Source: an uncultured delta proteobacterium (GTDB lineage: Bacteria > Desulfobacterota > Desulfobaccia > Desulfobaccales > 0-14-0-80-60-11). From it: DNA of 64,000 bases. The stretch's first letter is position 1; each line of letters begins with the position of its first letter. The DNA lies in contig CAWETI010000002.1 of NCBI GenBank assembly GCA_963812015.1, forward strand, positions 608,001 to 672,000, given 5' to 3'. This document shows positions 24,001-39,000 of this stretch, in pieces. The position numbers were made by a program.

Positions 24001-27000
24001 ACCCAGTAAAGAAGACTATACTGAGAAAGGTGATAATAATCAACCACTTGTGCTTCAACAGAACGTAGACATAGTCCCGGGCTGTTAATCTACCATAGGT
24101 ATTAAAATTATCATAGCCTAGCGATAAAGGCGTAGATAGAGATGATTGCGGAATAGGGGATTGTCCTACTGCTACAAGAGGCTGATCATGATTTGACATC
24201 AGTTATACCGCCTAGTTACTTTATTATTGTGTAAAAAAAATGCTATAGTGTATCCGCCCCTGGGAATGGGGATATCAAGATCCTGATTTTTACCTCGCCC
24301 ACCAGCGGCATGCCGATCTCTCCCTGCCCGTTGATCCAAAGCGTCGGTCCAGGGTTTTCTGGCCGAGGATCTCGGCTACAAGTTGGTCTCACGGCCCCAC
24401 CTGAAAGTCTTTATCGTCATCTAGGCTCAGATACGGGTGGCTTGAAAGGGTTTGCTATATCCTGACAGATTGTTCAAATTGCGCTTCCCGCGGAATAGCT
24501 GATTCCGCCGCCCACCAACTGTTTCACATCCAACAAGAGCCTTCTTAAGATGCTTTCTGGAACATAGACCACGTCATTCTCTTTGAGGGGGATATCCAGC
24601 TCTTTCTTTGCTAAGATGGCATACAGGTCAAAAGGAATGGTCGTCGGGTTACCTTGCTCATCGATTCGTAGGATGGACGATATCTGGGGCTTGGCCAGCC
24701 CTGCTACAGGGCTACCCGCCACGGCGACGGCCTGGGAGACCGTCAATTTACCTTTGACTGGAACGGTACCCGGCTTATTCACCGAGCCCAGCACATATGC
24801 CAGGCCGCCGATCGGCACATTGATAACATCTCCAGCCTGGATGGGCACATTAAGCCTCCCGTCCTGGGAAAGACGCCGCAGATCAAGGACGATGGTCTCG
24901 GAGTTAAGGGCAAAGGATTGAGGAACGTCAGTTCCAGGCTTTAATTTTCCGCCCTCCCGCCCGGTACGCTGGGAGCGGATGATATGCACATAATCGCCGG
25001 CTTTTTCATCCAAGCCTCCGGCCAAGGCCAGCATCTCCAGGAGCGTGCGCGGCCCGATCATCTCATAGCTGCCCGGTTTTTTTACGGCACCGGTCACTGC
25101 CACTTGCTGGTGGCGATATTCTTTGACGAAGACGCTGACCTGGGGGTTCCTTAAATAATTAGTACCGTATAATTCCTGGAGGTGGCTTTCCACCTGCTGG
25201 GGTGTCAGCCCGGCTACCTGGACGAGCCCAATAAGGGGCATGGTAATATCCCCCGAGCCATTCACTCGGACGAAGCGCTGGAGCTCCTTCTGCCCATAAA
25301 CGCCGATTTCCAGGAGATCCTCAGGGCCCACCGTGTAGTCACGCGGAGTTCTCAGGTTGGCGGCAGCCCCCTGAGCTAAAATTTGCTGGTTGAGATCATC
25401 TTTTTTGTCTTTGGTCTGAAGTTGCGCTGATGCTTTTTGCGGGGTGATGGTTCCGGAAGAACTACAGCCGGCCAACCAGAAAAGGGCCACTAAAGGCATG
25501 AGCAGATATCGACAACGATCCATGATAAATTCCCTATAATTTAAGTTTTTTTAACAGAGATTATGCGGCCGCCGTGGTTGCTTCTGTCTAAAAGAGCTAT
25601 CTGGATTATCTTATTCTGAAGCTTAAATCCGGAAACACTGGCGGCTGGCTACCGCCATAAAGGCCCTGAAAACGCTTAGTGGTATGGTTCCAAAGCCTCC
25701 TCGGTCAAATCCACCGCCACCGCCCCGCAAGTCCACTGCCACCACGAGGCGACGCTGGCCGTCTTTTTTCCGCAGGATGAAGCCTGTGGCCCCGGCCAGG
25801 GGGCCCCCGAGGATGGTCACCCGCCTCCCCTTCACCAACTGGGACCACAAGGATCAAGCGTCAGGTTGCTGGTCACCATCCTTTGGAGTGAGTATACCGT
25901 CTCCGCCGGTACCGGGGTGCACTGTCGCTTAAGTCCCAAAATGCGATCACGCCAGTATTTTTAAGAATATCGTAATAGACCGGGGTGCTGAGGTCGGCAT
26001 GGACGAAGAGATAGCCCGGGAAGAGGGGGACTTCCAGGAGGCGGACCCGGTCCTGGCGGTGACTGCGCGCGGTGATGCGGGGGAGAAAGACCTCCAGACC
26101 CTGATTTTGCAGGTGCCTCTCCACCTTAGTTTCCTGGCGGCTGTAAGTGTGGATCACAATACCAGGCAAGGTCTCCGTGGGTAACTGCACTGCTCTCAAT
26201 AGGCACCTTGGACACTCGCTTCGATTTGTATTCAGCCATTTTCCAAACAAATTGCCGTCCCGTAAATTACATAAGTAGTTTACCAATTACCTCAATAATT
26301 TAATATGTTATGGCTCAAACCATAACGTTCGGCCCCGATGACCTCCCCGAAACCCCTATCGGAAAAGTCGCCCTCCCCGGTTTTGCCCCCCCAACCCTGG
26401 AGCGACTATGGCTTCACCGGCTAACCCCCTGCTCTACCGGGAGGTGATGCGCCGCTCTTTCAATAATCACCACTGATGCCCCCGGCAGGACAATGAGCCT
26501 CAGAAATCTTGGCCCAGCAGCTCAGAATGACAAGAAAGAATTGAGGACTTAAGTATTCCGCAAATATTTATTGTCCGGCGGCCGCCCATAATTGAGAGAC
26601 AAATCCCCTACCCGGGCCATGGCCTCATTCTCGCCGGCAAAGCGGGCTGGGAACTCCACCGACAGCCGCCGGGAAATCTCCCCCAGGGAGCTTTGGCCGT
26701 CCATCAACTCCAGGATGAACCGGTCGATGCGGCCATCCTCTGTCAGAACCGGCACATGGGTAGAGGCCCGTTGCTTCAGGCTAGCTGGAGATACGGGGGC
26801 GCCTAAAAAAGTGGATTGCCGGAACTCGGCCTTTAGCCGCCCCGGCTGGCTCTCGTCCAGGATGCGGGTATCCCAGCGCCAGAGATAATCATCTCCCACC
26901 AGGTTGGCGGCCAGGTCTACCGATACCACATCCCCCGCTTCCAAGTTCATGGGTTCCGGCCAGGGGAAAAAATATTTGGCATAAACCCCGGGGCTTTCGC

Positions 27001-36000: not shown

Positions 36001-39000
36001 TCAGGCTGCAGGCCCAGTGCTTTGATCCACGTCCCGGCTGGCGGGCTCGCTTTCGCAACGAACTTCACTTCGCTCCCCCCCCGGGTTGGCCTCTCCTGAT
36101 CGACCTGCACTGGCAATTATATTATATCTTCCGCTTTTATCACTTGCCTTATACCCGCTTGCAGGAAAAAGCCATCACTTCTGAGTACCAGGGATACCTC
36201 GTAAAGCTACTTTGCCCAGAACACCTAGTGATCCACCTTGCCCTCCACACCTACGCCGAACCCGACAGCGTCCTAAAAATCATTGATCTAGAAGGGGCAC
36301 TTTCCCTTCCCCTAGACTGGCCCTTTTTCCTGGAAGAAGTTGCTCGTTTCAACTGCCAGAGGCCTCTGTATATTATCCTCCTGGGGATATCCCGGCTTTT
36401 TCCCCAAAAAGTGCCTCCCTTTATCCTTGATCACCTGGGCCAATCCCGGCCCGCGTGGGTTGAAAAACTGGTCCTCCGAGAGTCCCTGGGCTACCTGACT
36501 GTTCATGCCGCCACCCTGTACCACCATAGGCGACTCTCAGACTGGTTTTTTTACCTGAAGGCTTTAACCTGGCCGCAAGAAGAATACCTGACAGCAATGT
36601 ATGGAATGCCTGACCGCATTCGTTTTTTTCAACAAATCCTGGCCCACCTGTTTTCCTACGCCAAAAACTGGGGGCCGCATTAAATTCTTTCTTCTTAATT
36701 TCTCGTACGCTCAGATAGTAATGGCCATTACAGTCTGGTGTGGATTTTTTTAGTGTGGCAAGGGCTTGGGGCAGGTCATTTGGACTACTTAGCGAGGCCG
36801 TCGAAAAACCTCTTTGAATCTATTGTGATTTACTTTTGAGAGAGTTTTTAGGCGAAAAATCCCTACGACCTTTCTGATCTCTATCTTCTCTTATCATCGG
36901 TGGCTTCCCTGAGTCTCACCTGCCCCCAGCCTACACATATGCAAGCCCATAGTTCAGGACCTTTGCTATATTATGAACCAGGCAGTACAAGCAGCCAGTG
37001 GATATTCACCTTGATCTTACCTCTTAACGTGAACCGGTCTAACAGGATGTTGAAAAACTCGTTTGTTAAGAACCCCAAAGAATCGCTGTCTATAAAACCA
37101 TAAAGCTTTTATAGTTAATGATAACAAAAGGTTATCTGGAGGCAGCGATTATGCGCGGTGACGATATGCAGCAGCAAGCCATGTTCAGCTACCTTTCCCC
37201 TGAAGCTCGAGTGCCCCAGGATCATCCCCTCAGACCCATCCGGAACATGGTGAATCAAGCTTTGGCTGAGCTGGCCGGGGAGTTCCAGGCCATGTATTCC
37301 CGGGAGGGTCGCCCTTCCATCGCCCCGGAGAAGCTGCTGCGCGCCTTATTGCTCCAGGTCCTTTACACCATTCGCAGCGAACGGCTCTTGATGGAGCAGT
37401 TGGATTAAAATCTCCTGTTTCGCTGGTTCGTTGGCCTGTCCATGGACGACAATGTCTGGGACCATTCCGTCTTCTCTAAGAATCGGGAGCGCTTTCTCCG
37501 TTCGGACCTGGCCGCGGCCTTTTTCGGACGCATCCACGAGCAGGCGGCCCAGGCCGGACTGTTGTCGGACGAGCATTTCACCGTGGACGGCACCCTCATT
37601 GAGGCCTGGGCTTCCCTGAAGAGTTTCCGGCCCAAAGACACTCTGATTTTGGGCATACCTCACCCGTCAAGAAGGTGCAGAACGAACGGGAGGGAGATAT
37701 TAACCGGGGCTGGCCCGCAGGCCCGGCCGAGGGCCGAAGCATCTCTATAAGAGTTAATCAGTTCCCATATTTCTGCCATTCTATCAATCCTTGGCACCTG
37801 ACCTGAGTCCCTGGCAGGGATATTATCAACTCCTTTCATTATCAGTTAAATTTAGGATTTAATTTCTGATAACCTTTTTCCAATTCTTGATTCATGAGCT
37901 GGATTTGATTGGTTTTTTGATAACATCGGCAGAGAGAAATATTGATCTTCTCGTCTTCCGGGCTGATTTTTTCGGCTTTTTTCAGTTCAGGGATGGCCCG
38001 CAAATATTCATGGGTCTTTTCGAAGCTCATTCCTAATATCGCATGGACATTGATATCATCTTCCTGACAATTCAGTTCCAAGGACTTATAGACCGCCTTG
38101 ATGGCTTGCCGGTAGTGTTTCTTTTCGAATTGATACCTGGCCATGAAGAGATGAAAGCGGCCGTCATGGGGAACTTTCTTTAAGGCTTTCCGAATAATAG
38201 CCAGGGCCTGACGGCTCTTTTTCTTTTCTTCATAATAGGAAACCAATCCCCTCATTTCTTCTTGACCATCTTTATCTAATAGATAATTACCCAAAACTAA
38301 TATATCCATTTCCGTGCTTAAAAAAACCTCGATCGCGTCAGCAGGTGTTTCGACAATCGGCATCCCACGGATATTAAATGAAGTATTTAAAATGACAGGC
38401 ACACCGGTTATTTGATAGAATTCATTTATCAAATCATAATAAAGTTCATCATCAGCTCTGGTTACGGTCTGCACCCTGGCGGTGCCGTCTACATGAATAA
38501 CCGCAGGTATCTCTTTGCCTTTATCCTCTTTTGTGGTCGCCACCAGCAACATAAAAGGGCTGGGGCAAGAAAGATCAAAGAATTCGGTGGCACATTCCAA
38601 AAGGATGCTGGGGGCATAGGGGCGAAAACTCTCCCGGTGCTTCACCTTTTTGGTTACCGACTCTTTTATCCCGGTCTGCCTGGGGTCGGCCAGAATGCTT
38701 CGGTGACCTAATGCCCTGGGGCCGAATTCAGCACCTCCTTGAAACCAGCCAACGATCTTGCCGGCCGCAATATACTGAGCGGTTCTGCTGAGGAGTTCGT
38801 TTCTGGTCAAAGGGTTTTTTACTATCTTATGCTTGCGCAAAGCGGCCCGAATCTCTCCTTTCTTGTATTTTCTCCCAAGATAAACATTTTTCAGAGGAAA
38901 TCTACTCTTTCCATCGGCTAATTTATGCCAGCCGTATAAGGCGCAACCGATGGCTATCCCATCATCCGTTGCGGCCGGCTGAATAAAAATATTTTTAAAT

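Follow-up and report, generated by a model that had tools for sequence, protein, structure and literature searches.

A lasso peptide cluster with a kinase, a PRMT-fold methyltransferase and a putative PsmN-type nucleotidyltransferase

The window analysed here is a stretch of 64,000 nucleotides from an uncultured delta proteobacterium; its positions 26549-36683 comprise a complete lasso peptide cluster, consisting of B1, B2, a cyclase and a 48-aa precursor, plus additional enzymes. The best overall explanation, to which we assign a probability of about 50% including the mechanism, is class II lasso peptide biosynthesis within a cross-phylum family that carries a cassette of a kinase, a methyltransferase (MT) with the fold of protein arginine methyltransferases (PRMTs), and a PsmN-type nucleotidyltransferase. 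What is documented below comprises the genes with their folds and motifs, how well the cassette is conserved, and how core motifs go together with particular enzymes; all of the chemistry is inferred.

Organization of the cluster

The following features were assigned:

26549-27736, minus strand: PRMT-fold SAM methyltransferase (g00581), 395 aa; extended at its C-terminus by three helices (residues ~333-383); PRMT_C at 141-275, 1.4e-9
27733-28773, minus strand: HPr-kinase-like lasso peptide kinase (g00582), 346 aa; HprK-related kinase A (TIGR04352) 3e-8, below cutoff; catalytic motif present
28803-28949, minus strand: lasso precursor, 48 aa, MKSTKKERLAYHPPQVMDYGNVKQITMATGRNGNTDTGGWTGRNKTAA; ribosome binding site; lasso_cyano (NF033528) 1.6e-4, below cutoff
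29158-31002, minus strand: TPR-GT41 (OGT/SPINDLY-type) glycosyltransferase (g00584), 614 aa; Pfam GT41 2.3e-18 in two stretches, plus TPRs
31117-32949, minus strand: lasso macrolactam cyclase (C), 610 aa; NF033535 4.5e-108, 362 bits against a cutoff of 525; Asn_synthase 8.5e-32; GATase_7
32946-34538, minus strand: peptide-arginase-like ureohydrolase domain (residues ~19-245) fused to TPR, 530 aa; NF052474 1.8e-12, below cutoff
34585-35088, minus strand: lasso leader peptidase B2; NF033537 8.1e-23, 81 bits, above the cutoff of 33; Transglut_core3 2.2e-22
35033-35317, minus strand: lasso B1 (PqqD-type RRE); PqqD 8.9e-13; lasso_PqqD_Bac 3.8e-8, below cutoff
35535-36683, plus strand: NTP_transf_5 "uncharacterised nucleotidyltransferase" (NTP5); PF14907 6.5e-38
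37842-40064, minus strand: NodU-type carbamoyltransferase fused to TPR; Carbam_trans_C 3.6e-70 plus TPRs; GC 0.435
40368-41312, minus strand: DDE transposase between cluster and exporter; DDE_Tnp_1_4 1.1e-86
43121-44938, minus strand: displaced D-type ABC exporter belonging to the cluster family; full-length identity of 47% with the ABC gene following MT in locus L045

The genes from MT to B1 are eight head-to-tail ORFs on the minus strand; the ninth, NTP5, lies on the plus strand. The genome-wide survey's note had described a lasso cluster with eight genes on one strand, which agrees with this arrangement, and the family matches (PRMT_C 141-275, Glyco_transf_41 twice, NF033537 for B2, PqqD, and NF033535) were reproduced. 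The curated NCBIfam cutoffs were not reached by the kinase, the arginase-like protein, the cyclase and the precursor.

The precursor peptide

The precursor ATG is preceded by GGAGG at a distance of 7 nt. The core begins at residue 28 and carries Trp13, Arg16, and Lys18-Thr19 in core numbering; its second arginine, previously placed at 17, occupies core residue 16. We predict an Ala1-Asp9 ring and a plug formed by Trp13; Asp9 (D36 of the precursor) is aligned with an aspartate invariant in 28 related precursors. In this alignment (A3), whose rows were picked from the KT class of precursors, every row has Y11, P14, Y19, G20, D36, and T46, and conservation of T26 and K45 is at least 90%. The leader motif YxxPxLx3Gx5Tx proposed earlier fits overall, with a valine at the position given as leucine. 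In the closest relative, L085, the leader is kept and the core varied; this precursor ends with ...GTRV, thus KT is not kept even inside the window's own branch.

The kinase/methyltransferase/nucleotidyltransferase cassette

At least 286 relatives of MT were found in genome_contigs, where the survey had counted four. Among 80 MT loci, homologues of the kinase occurred in 62, the cyclase in 56, B1 in 51, B2 in 41, NTP5 in 49, and a precursor-like ORF in 56; for the 49 loci with sufficient flank, the values were 41 (kinase), 40 (cyclase), 40 (B1), 30 (B2), and 34 (NTP5). The kinase, MT, and the nucleotidyltransferase thus form a cassette in most of the 80 related loci, which stem from many phyla. 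No paper on this family was found.

The earlier pairing of MT with g00582 proved to be conserved: in 48 of the 80 loci the two genes are at most 300 bp apart, and in the window their reading frames share 4 nt, where the kinase gene ends and MT begins. The view that g00582 belongs to no family has to be given up: the TIGR04352 match and the full catalytic motif (H135-G150-G153-G155-K156-S157-D173-D174) identify an HPrK-like lasso peptide kinase, and the motif spacing is identical to that of BsfK, H148...D187 (according to the portion of PMC10368454 cited here). The NTP5 homologues mostly follow directly after MT or the ABC gene. We read the divergent NTP5 gene of the window as a nucleotidyltransferase of the PsmN/BsfN type; for the role of PsmN see the relevant part of PMC6993621.

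Fold and signature loops of the methyltransferase

As claimed before, MT possesses a genuine PRMT fold. Among solved structures, PRMT1/Hmt1 is its nearest match in sequence (1.3e-27); a Foldseek search with the AF2 model (pLDDT 93.3) listed PRMT2 on top (2.5e-28), and structural comparison gave a VIA Z of 34 for residues 1-310 versus 13 for non-PRMT methyltransferases. Motif I (VLDIGTG) is located at residue 37. The double-E loop, however, reads SDLHG at 105 instead of SEWMG, followed by ...QQ, and the THW loop reads GVY at 250; both signatures are gone throughout the window's MT subfamily. MT has lost both arginine-binding signatures. At the first double-E position, 90% or more of 42 sequences retain Asp106, and next to it the subfamily gained a basic residue (His/Arg) at position 108, which is hydrophobic in PRMTs. 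Weak PqqD matches, all in one register, recur in the C-terminal segment (13 of 34 relatives) and may hint at peptide binding; a profile comparison of this segment with B1 was not significant.

Candidate acceptor residues

The composition of the precursor tails was compared for loci that are related rather than independent, with a kinase-only set drawn from one phylum: KT was found within the last six residues of 36/66 MT-locus precursors versus 0/14 kinase-only ones (p 7.6e-5), Lys within the last eight residues of 50/66 versus 3/14, Arg within the last eight of 17/66 versus 10/14, and Ser/Thr within the last six of 59/66 versus 11/14. Because KT tracks the MT loci, and kinase-only loci carry Arg, we consider Thr19 the candidate phospho-acceptor and Lys18, not an arginine, the likely methyl acceptor. 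KT is absent from 30/66 MT-locus precursors, some of which contain RT (L019, L023); in L019 a single MT accompanies precursors of both types. In a Nitrospira-type subfamily, the tail is [ST]xCL and lacks a basic residue.

An anionic acceptor would fit the basic residue gained at position 108 just as well. MT might O-methylate an anionic group formed or uncovered at the C-terminus (the phosphate of Thr, a sugar phosphate, or the carboxylate at the very end), as suggested by this residue, by the tight coupling of MT and kinase, and by the precedent of lassomycin-type C-terminal methyl esters, which are introduced by another MT family (cited part of PMC9266682). We regard this reaction as improbable: the retained Asp106 fits a cationic acceptor better than an anionic one, the association of Lys with the presence of MT would go unexplained, and in the aligned precursors anything from 0 to 3 residues separates Thr from the C-terminus.

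That MT works as a genuine arginine methyltransferase on Arg4 or Arg16, a view close to the earlier proposal, is less probable still. It would agree with the full PRMT fold, the similarity to PRMT1 (1e-27), the two arginines of the window core, and the replacement of KT by RT in L019 and L023. Moreover, relatives with intact double-E and THW loops (L069, L078) belong to radical-SAM/PqqD clusters with kinase and NTP5 genes, where the precursors are Arg-rich; this pairing of canonical loops with Arg-rich precursors counts for the Lys18 reading as well. Against it stand the altered SDLHG...QQ and GVY loops and the tail arginines, which are rarer in loci with MT; additionally, the precursors do not conserve an Arg, a doubt that had already been voiced by the survey.

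An arginase-like enzyme in the cluster

The gene product listed in the survey as a second TPR protein does contain TPR repeats; its arginase-like domain had been missed, as had the putative PsmN-type transferase and the displaced ABC exporter. The database gene call begins at 34484, which is likely the true start. The protein is colinear with OspR (8brp, 4.6e-8), and for the AF2 model (pLDDT 88.8) Foldseek ranked OspR first (1.9e-7), followed by agmatinases and arginases. The motifs HVDAHDD (residue 59), DIDVD (163), and SVEGG (211) are invariant in 39 sequences. Nine of 10 metagenome relatives adjoin lasso genes, and six of seven precursors from arginase loci contain Arg within the last eight residues. 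Since these relatives sit in lasso clusters whose cores carry a tail arginine, a conversion of Arg16 to ornithine is plausible, and the window cluster has likely acquired an arginine-to-ornithine converting enzyme in addition.

Conceivably, MT of the window methylates the ornithine produced from Arg16. Such a two-step route has a precedent in the enteropeptins, where an arginase acts first and the ornithine is then N-methylated (cited part of PMC9811515); both genes co-occur in the window, L085, L023, L088, and L093, and arginase loci often have R for K before T (RT within the last six residues of 3/7 precursors). We consider this route hardly probable as well, given that an arginase gene was found in the fetched flanks of only 1/80 MT loci, that L089, L090, and L108 combine kinase and arginase without MT, and that the window core carries its own KT. 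Little also speaks for MT sparing the peptide and modifying a cellular protein, e.g. for self-protection of the producer: some sources label relatives as "ribosomal protein L11 methyltransferase", but across two distinct RiPP classes MT keeps its place in the operon next to the kinase, its C-terminal domain gives PqqD-like matches, and core motifs change together with the presence and the subfamily of MT.

GT41 and outlying genes

The GT41 gene has a GC content of 0.496 versus 0.61-0.64 in neighboring genes and is missing between cyclase and precursor in L085. No homologue of its catalytic domain was detected in 90 MT or arginase loci (in a set of 80 loci, the only matches were to the TPR region), and its own genome contains no paralogue of this domain; one of 20 kinase-only loci, L119, has a catalytic homologue, which adjoins the lasso kinase. 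The suggested glycosylation by g00584 is therefore without comparative support, and its membership in the pathway is doubtful. The carbamoyltransferase, a possible accessory gene, has homologues in 4/90 loci; in L008 the copy lies beside NTP5(-) and B1(+), an arrangement as in the window. Both genes may add further groups or may equally be bystanders. For the ABC exporter, 13 loci contain homologues (E <= 1e-98), most of which lie between MT and NTP5.

Proposed pathway

Initially, B1 would bind the leader, and the kinase would probably phosphorylate Thr19 near the C-terminus of the linear precursor, comparable to PadeK, PsmK, and BsfK, which act on Ser. As a rather tentative second step, the nucleotidyltransferase might attach a hexose or a similar group to the Thr19 phosphate; C-terminal phosphorylation and hexosylation have a precedent as a possible lock (PMC6993621, in the part cited). 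MT could then N-methylate the adjacent Lys18, possibly reading the phosphate, a step whose chances we place slightly below even. For the conversion of the tail residue Arg16 to ornithine by the TPR-fused arginase-like enzyme, the odds appear balanced. Leader removal and closure of the Ala1-Asp9 ring by B2 and the cyclase would follow, with the bulky modified C-terminus and Trp13 holding the thread, and the product would be exported by the ABC protein encoded at 43121-44938.

Comparison with known systems

With the eukaryotic type I PRMTs (PRMT1/Hmt1, PRMT2, PRMT3, CARM1), MT shares the Rossmann domain, beta-barrel and arm (Z 32-34, RMSD 1.9-3.2 Å over ~300 residues, 22-25% identity). It differs by Asp and Gln replacing the Glu pair of the double-E loop, by GVY replacing THW, by the extra C-terminal helical domain, and by its RiPP operon setting.

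The arginase-like enzyme is comparable to the peptide arginase OspR (landornamide) and the FlmR/OhkR family, and to the arginase/methyltransferase pair of enteropeptin. It has the ureohydrolase fold, with OspR as its top match in structure and sequence; the HxDxHxD and DxDxD motifs align with those of OspR, and the setting is likewise a RiPP cluster. It differs in scoring far lower than the family cutoff (47 bits against 350), does not match PF12640, is fused to ~280 residues of TPR, and is placed in lasso clusters; none of the papers that one search turned up, reviews and an engineering study as judged by title and abstract, connects a natural lasso peptide with peptide arginases.

As a whole system, the cluster resembles those of the phosphorylated lasso peptides of the pseudomycoidin (psm)/paeninodin type (PsmK/PadeK/ThcoK, PsmN). 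According to the cited portions of PMC6993621 and PMC9266682, B1 and B2 are separate proteins there too, the kinase is HPrK-like and works close to the C-terminus, and a cyclase, an ABC exporter, and an "uncharacterised nucleotidyltransferase" are present; pseudomycoidin has an Ala1-Asp9 ring, which is also predicted for the window. In these accounts, however, the C-terminal Ser is phosphorylated, whereas the window family has a conserved Thr 0-3 residues from the end preceded by Lys, and no cluster with a PRMT-fold MT or arginase-like gene is described there. In the bsf cluster (BsfK, BsfN) of Bradymonas sediminis, phosphorylation by BsfK is directed at core residue Ser3, and the cited part of PMC10368454 describes no methyltransferase; besides the kinase motif spacing, this cluster shares with our proposal the B1-assisted phosphorylation of the linear precursor and a nucleotidyltransferase gene.

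Gene content and setting of the cluster

The window holds a real class II lasso cluster, which belongs to a widespread and apparently uncharacterised family and whose chemistry we infer throughout. Eight tightly packed genes occupy 26549-35317 on the minus strand; a ninth lies on the plus strand.

26549-27736, minus strand: methyltransferase with a PRMT_C subdomain by family scan (MT, 395 aa)
27733-28773, minus strand: 346-aa protein, predicted HPrK-like kinase
28803-28949, minus strand: lasso precursor (48 aa), preceded by a GGAGG ribosome-binding site
29158-31002, minus strand: TPR-GT41 protein by family scan
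32946-34538, minus strand: TPR protein with an arginase-like N-terminal domain
Same run, minus strand: asparagine-synthetase-like cyclase C (NF033535, 4.5e-108; 362 bits, below the cutoff of 525)
Same run, minus strand: transglutaminase-like leader peptidase B2 (NF033537, 81 bits, cutoff 33)
Same run, minus strand: leader-binding protein B1, a PqqD-type RRE (PqqD, 8.9e-13)
35535-36683, plus strand: NTP_transf_5 nucleotidyltransferase (NTP5; PF14907, 6.5e-38, 131 bits, cutoff 31)

The precursor's leader follows the pattern YxxPxL...T(-2), with Y11, P14, G20 and T26 in place and V16 replacing the leucine, and its core is able to join Ala1 with Asp9, an acidic residue within positions 7-9 that is invariant in 28 relatives. 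A leader of lasso type, a ring-closing core, a ribosome-binding site and the genes for B1, B2 and cyclase together confirm the lasso peptide cluster reported in the genome-wide survey's note.

The promoter scan gave 12 promoter-like sites where 5.5 ± 2.1 were expected; two of these point away from each other in the gap that separates B1 and NTP5 (35486-35459, minus strand; 35474-35502, plus strand). It reported no site just 5' of the precursor, and the terminator scan found terminators at chance level. With a G+C content of 0.57-0.64, the core genes lie above the window as a whole (0.527) and above the flanking genes measured (0.44-0.55). Four transposase or integrase genes lie around the cluster (8813-9655, 10048-10725, 20288-21316 and 40368-41312; rve, IS1595, DDE_3 and DDE_Tnp_1), which is embedded in a polysaccharide synthesis and export island with Wzc (21920-24199), Wza (24474-25523), an RfaH-like gene (25873-26286) and, at 14096-17854, glycosyltransferases and a flippase. 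Three ORFs of the window have no Pfam family at E ≤ 1e-5: 10929-11951 (340 aa), 12456-13925 (489 aa) and 45794-46906 (370 aa).

Fold and substrate loops of the methyltransferase

MT is a PRMT by fold, not by active site. Its sequence matches PRMT1/Hmt1 at 1.3e-27, and its predicted model (pLDDT 93.3) shows the SAM-binding Rossmann domain and the beta-barrel of this family; Foldseek ranks PRMT2 first (2.5e-28), and VIA superimposes PRMT2 on residues 1-310 with a Z of 34.4, the next non-PRMT methyltransferases reaching Z 13. In PRMTs the guanidinium group is held by the two glutamates of the double-E loop. The alignment of MT to Hmt1 pairs SEWMGYFLLYES with SDLHGSLPFFQQ, and in the HMMER alignment the PRMT motif SEWMG...ES reads SDLHG...QQ. 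Across 42 aligned members of the MT family, at least 90% keep the Asp of this loop, and conservation is absent at the second acidic position. The THW loop is likewise missing, as THW aligns with GVY in MT and with (I/V)YG in the subfamily consensus. The genome-wide survey's note had described a PRMT-fold arginine methyltransferase; the fold stands, and the arginine-binding loops are lost.

Past the barrel, MT carries three helices (residues 333-383) which PRMTs do not have; the VIA and Foldseek matches are confined to residues 1-310. When the C-terminal segments of 34 relatives were cut out and searched alone, 13 matched Pfam PqqD, nearly all in the same register and all below the gathering score (best 2.6e-4; 0.091 for the window's MT). 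A profile comparison of the MT C-terminus with the loci's own B1 proteins by hhalign was not significant (probability 1.3%). For residues 300-395, the best named lead in the ESM Atlas is the winged-helix cluster of PKMT C-termini at 0.79, which is under the 0.9 mark and thus a lead only, and 3 of the 34 segments match Pfam PKMT_2nd weakly. The PqqD matches make a peptide-binding module a possible role for the C-terminal domain. A complex prediction for MT (alignment A2) with the precursor (alignment A3) scored 0.00 and is evidence for neither side.

A kinase and a nucleotidyltransferase accompany the methyltransferase

The 346-aa protein had been assigned to no family. Judged by its sequence it is an HPrK-like lasso peptide kinase of the PadeK/ThcoK/PsmK/BsfK kind: it matches TIGR04352, HprK-related kinase A, at 3e-8 (33 bits, the curated cutoff being 200) and has the full kinase motif, with the catalytic His (H135), the P-loop G..G.GKS (G150, G153, G155, K156, S157) and the Asp-Asp pair (D173, D174). 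The match to HPrK among solved structures of the PDB reaches an E-value of 0.37 only.

The spread of these genes was assessed at two levels. Of the 8000 candidates scored in a protein search with MT, 1555 qualified as relatives at E ≤ 1e-5. Scanning genomes for MT turned up at least 286 relatives, and the 80 best loci were retained for comparison. Queries with the window's proteins located the kinase in 62 of these loci (within 300 bp of MT in 48), the cyclase in 56, B1 in 51, B2 in 41 and NTP5 in 49; in the subset of 49 loci whose flanks extend 5 kb or more upstream and 3 kb or more downstream, the numbers were 41, 40, 40, 30 and 34, respectively. Cyclase, B1, B2 and kinase were all not found in 15 of the 80 loci, and in 9 of these the sequence around MT falls short of 5 kb upstream or of 3 kb downstream. 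The hosts comprise dozens of genomes from Acidobacteriota, cyanobacteria, Chloroflexia (Chloroflexota), Longimicrobium, Nitrospira (Nitrospirota) and others; in the window's own lineage MT is patchy (3 of 40 related genomes). The kinase-MT-NTP5 cassette is therefore the rule in the MT family, and this family is large. Our literature search found the known papers on lasso kinases and nucleotidyltransferases, no paper describing the product of a cassette of kinase, PRMT-fold MT and nucleotidyltransferase, and none that places a PRMT-type enzyme in the biosynthesis of a lasso peptide or another RiPP.

Precursor tails and the proposed acceptor residues

A profile built from the first precursor matches detected 68 ORFs resembling precursors, which are spread over 56 of the 80 MT loci. 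An alignment of 28 precursors chosen from the class with a Lys-Thr (KT) tail shows no variation at the leader Tyr, Pro and Tyr-Gly, at the ring Asp or at a Thr lying 0-3 residues from the C-terminal end, and the Lys preceding this Thr is at least 90% conserved. In the window these are Lys45 and Thr46 of the precursor (Lys18 and Thr19 of the core), and the invariant Thr46 offers the hydroxyl that a kinase needs as acceptor. For counting, 66 distinct precursors from MT loci were used, with L023, an MT locus which has an arginase gene, set aside. The control was drawn from 401 Acidobacteriota genomes, of which 74 gave a match to the kinase and 47 a match to the MT profile; 20 kinase places without MT nearby were fetched, most of them lasso clusters, and 12 of these loci yielded 14 distinct precursors.

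KT occurs within the last six residues of 36 of the 66 precursors from MT loci and of none of the 14 from kinase-only loci; Lys is present in the last eight residues of 50/66 and 3/14, respectively (Fisher p 7.6e-5 for KT and 2e-4 for Lys, values which overstate the case because related loci are not independent). Both sets commonly have a Ser or Thr among their six C-terminal residues (59/66 and 11/14). In the kinase-only loci L106 and L107, whose kinases match that of the window at about 1e-74 and are as close to it as those of MT loci, the precursors retain the Thr, at a distance of 2-3 residues from their end, without the Lys. The hydroxyl therefore tracks the kinase, and Lys tracks MT. Arg had been proposed as methyl acceptor; this is not borne out, as Arg in the last eight residues is rarer in MT loci (17/66) than in kinase-only loci (10/14) and, if anything, tracks the absence of MT. 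In four of the kinase-only Acidobacteriota lasso clusters (L113, L114, L121 and L123), the precursors beside the kinase share the tail ...GGSGNANEGS..(K/R)PRP.

The subfamilies of MT and the ends of the peptides change together. The subfamily of the window, with S-D-x-R/H-G and without THW, pairs with KT, and a Nitrospira-type subfamily with the loop ADQIGHFGFEAGL pairs with lasso cores that show the ending [ST]xCL and lack any basic residue. Such ends suggest that the acceptor of the Nitrospira-type MT differs, and it may possibly be Cys. In the Nitrospira-type loci L065, L066 and L071-L076, MT occupies roughly positions 10000-11150 of the full loci, and the gene order is MT-kinase-NTP5.

Two further loci have an MT with canonical double-E and THW loops, and their clusters are not of the lasso type:

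L078, 6357-12742: PqqD protein, one or two radical-SAM enzymes, HPrK-like kinase, MT, NTP5 and ABC-2 transporter
L069, 133-5517: the same set of genes
L078, 8896-9060, and L069, 1517-1678: candidate precursors, rich in Cys and Arg

As the trio of kinase, MT and NTP5 thus also occurs in RiPP loci without lasso genes, it looks like a portable tailoring module. The arginine-type site of MT looks like the older state, a reading which is a lead rather than a finding because the canonical loci are only two.

A peptide-arginase-like enzyme in the window's branch

What had been listed as a second TPR protein does have TPR repeats; its N-terminal domain, missed in that description, makes it a peptide-arginase-like enzyme. 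The first 245 residues match NF052474, the model of the peptide arginases FlmR and OhkR, at 1.8e-12 (47 bits, cutoff 350) and are colinear with OspR (8brp) at 4.6e-8, including the metal-binding stretches hvDaHdD and lDiDvDy, with which HVDAHDD and DIDVD of the window's protein align. PF12640 is not among the Pfam matches of this protein; it is found in a short relative, P0168. The predicted model (pLDDT 88.8) has the ureohydrolase fold closest to OspR: 8brp takes Foldseek ranks 1-3 at 1.9e-7, with modest TM values of 0.55/0.42, followed by agmatinases and arginases. Of 533 relatives, nearly all are annotated as TPR proteins only, and a set of 39 shows no variation in HxDAHxD, DIDVD and SVEGG.

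Nine of ten metagenome relatives adjoin lasso genes, and the tenth adjoins the family's ABC exporter. In L085, a relative locus whose arginase-TPR protein is 80% identical, the gene order is B1-B2-arginase-cyclase-precursor-kinase-MT. In three other arginase loci the gene lies directly 3' of the kinase, the usual place of MT (L089, 8889-13035; L090, 3077-5636; L108, 5466-7861), and no MT was seen in the DNA fetched for them. Arg occurs in the last eight residues of 6 of 7 precursors from arginase loci versus 17 of 66 others (p 0.003, the loci not being independent). Arg-bearing tails in these loci, together with the OspR-like domain, make it plausible that the enzyme of the window converts Arg16 of the core to ornithine.

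Glycosyltransferase and neighbouring genes

The protein encoded at 29158-31002 is a real TPR-GT41 from a very large generic family (more than 5115 relatives), and glycosylation of the peptide by it had been considered. That proposal lacks comparative support, since homologues of the catalytic domain occur in 0 of 80 MT loci and 0 of 10 arginase loci. The gene's G+C content of 0.496 matches that of the flank, and no GT41 gene stands at this position in L085. It is not a paralogue of host genes, as the genome's 24 further matches are confined to TPR repeats. Membership in the conserved cluster was also rejected, the sole exception among the 110 loci examined being one of the 20 kinase-only loci, L119, where a nearly full-length homologue (7879-9861, 2.6e-182) overlaps the start of the lasso kinase gene. 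The case of L119 and a lasso cluster from a cyanobacterium, for which the pseudomycoidin paper mentions a kinase and a recognisable glycosyltransferase (PMC6993621), leave a role of GT41 in the pathway possible but unsupported.

Two genes beyond NTP5 have homologues in the relative loci:

37842-40064: TPR-fused carbamoyltransferase, with homologues in 4 of 90 loci; in one of them, L008, it adjoins NTP5 and B1 as in the window
43121-44938: ABC protein (exporter), which along its whole length shares 47% identity with the exporter following MT in L045 and has strong homologues in 13 loci

The transposase at 40368-41312 and the carbamoyltransferase separate the ABC protein from the cluster. Three enzymes are fused to TPR repeats within 11 kb: GT41 (29158-31002), the arginase-like protein (32946-34538) and the carbamoyltransferase (37842-40064). 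The repeats might serve them for docking in common.

Joint reading and comparison with known systems

Taken together, these data suggest a reading to which, as a whole, we give a chance of roughly 30%. A PRMT fold would have been re-tooled in bacteria into a peptide lysine (or ornithine) N-methyltransferase, with the PqqD-like domain as guide. Its partners would be a peptide kinase and a PsmN-type transferase, the three enzymes together making a methyl-Lys/phospho(glycosyl)-Thr stopper at the C-terminus, borne by a lasso family that crosses phyla. The same three-enzyme module would serve radical-SAM RiPPs, where MT may still resemble an arginine methyltransferase, and in the window's branch a TPR-fused peptide arginase would additionally give the first ornithine-bearing lasso peptide.

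New here are the association of KT with MT and of Arg with its absence, the loss of the PRMT signature loops, the same trio in radical-SAM RiPP clusters, and the arginase-TPR enzyme as an accessory which, among the loci examined, occurs in lasso clusters only. Lasso peptides combine a stable scaffold with antibiotic and receptor-blocking activities, and every tailoring reaction added to those known broadens the range that can be made or engineered. The KT-versus-Arg rule is a testable predictor of modification for genome mining. Since no paper was found on the cassette's product, a single product determined by expression, if well chosen, would supply the annotation for a very large family. If the reading is true, a PRMT scaffold that gave up arginine for another acceptor is a clear case of active-site re-purposing, and a TPR-fused peptide arginase in lasso clusters adds a new RiPP class to those with ribosomally made ornithine peptides.

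Among known systems, the enteropeptins offer a parallel for the putative arginase step, their arginase being followed by N-methylation of ornithine (PMC9811515). PsmN is likewise annotated as an uncharacterised nucleotidyltransferase and adds hexoses to the phospho-Ser of pseudomycoidin (PMC6993621); by this common annotation and its place in a kinase-bearing lasso cluster, NTP5 is probably a PsmN-type lasso nucleotidyltransferase. The kinase motif of the window's protein has the same spacing as that of BsfK, whose motif residues were mutated and found important, and the target of the Bsf kinase is Ser3 of the core, in the still linear precursor (PMC10368454). Lasso kinases act on the linear precursor also in paeninodin and pseudomycoidin, at the C-terminal Ser (PMC9266682, PMC10368454). 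In these peptides of the PadeK/PsmK type the acceptor is the terminal Ser, whereas the conserved hydroxyl of the window's family is that of a Thr near the end.
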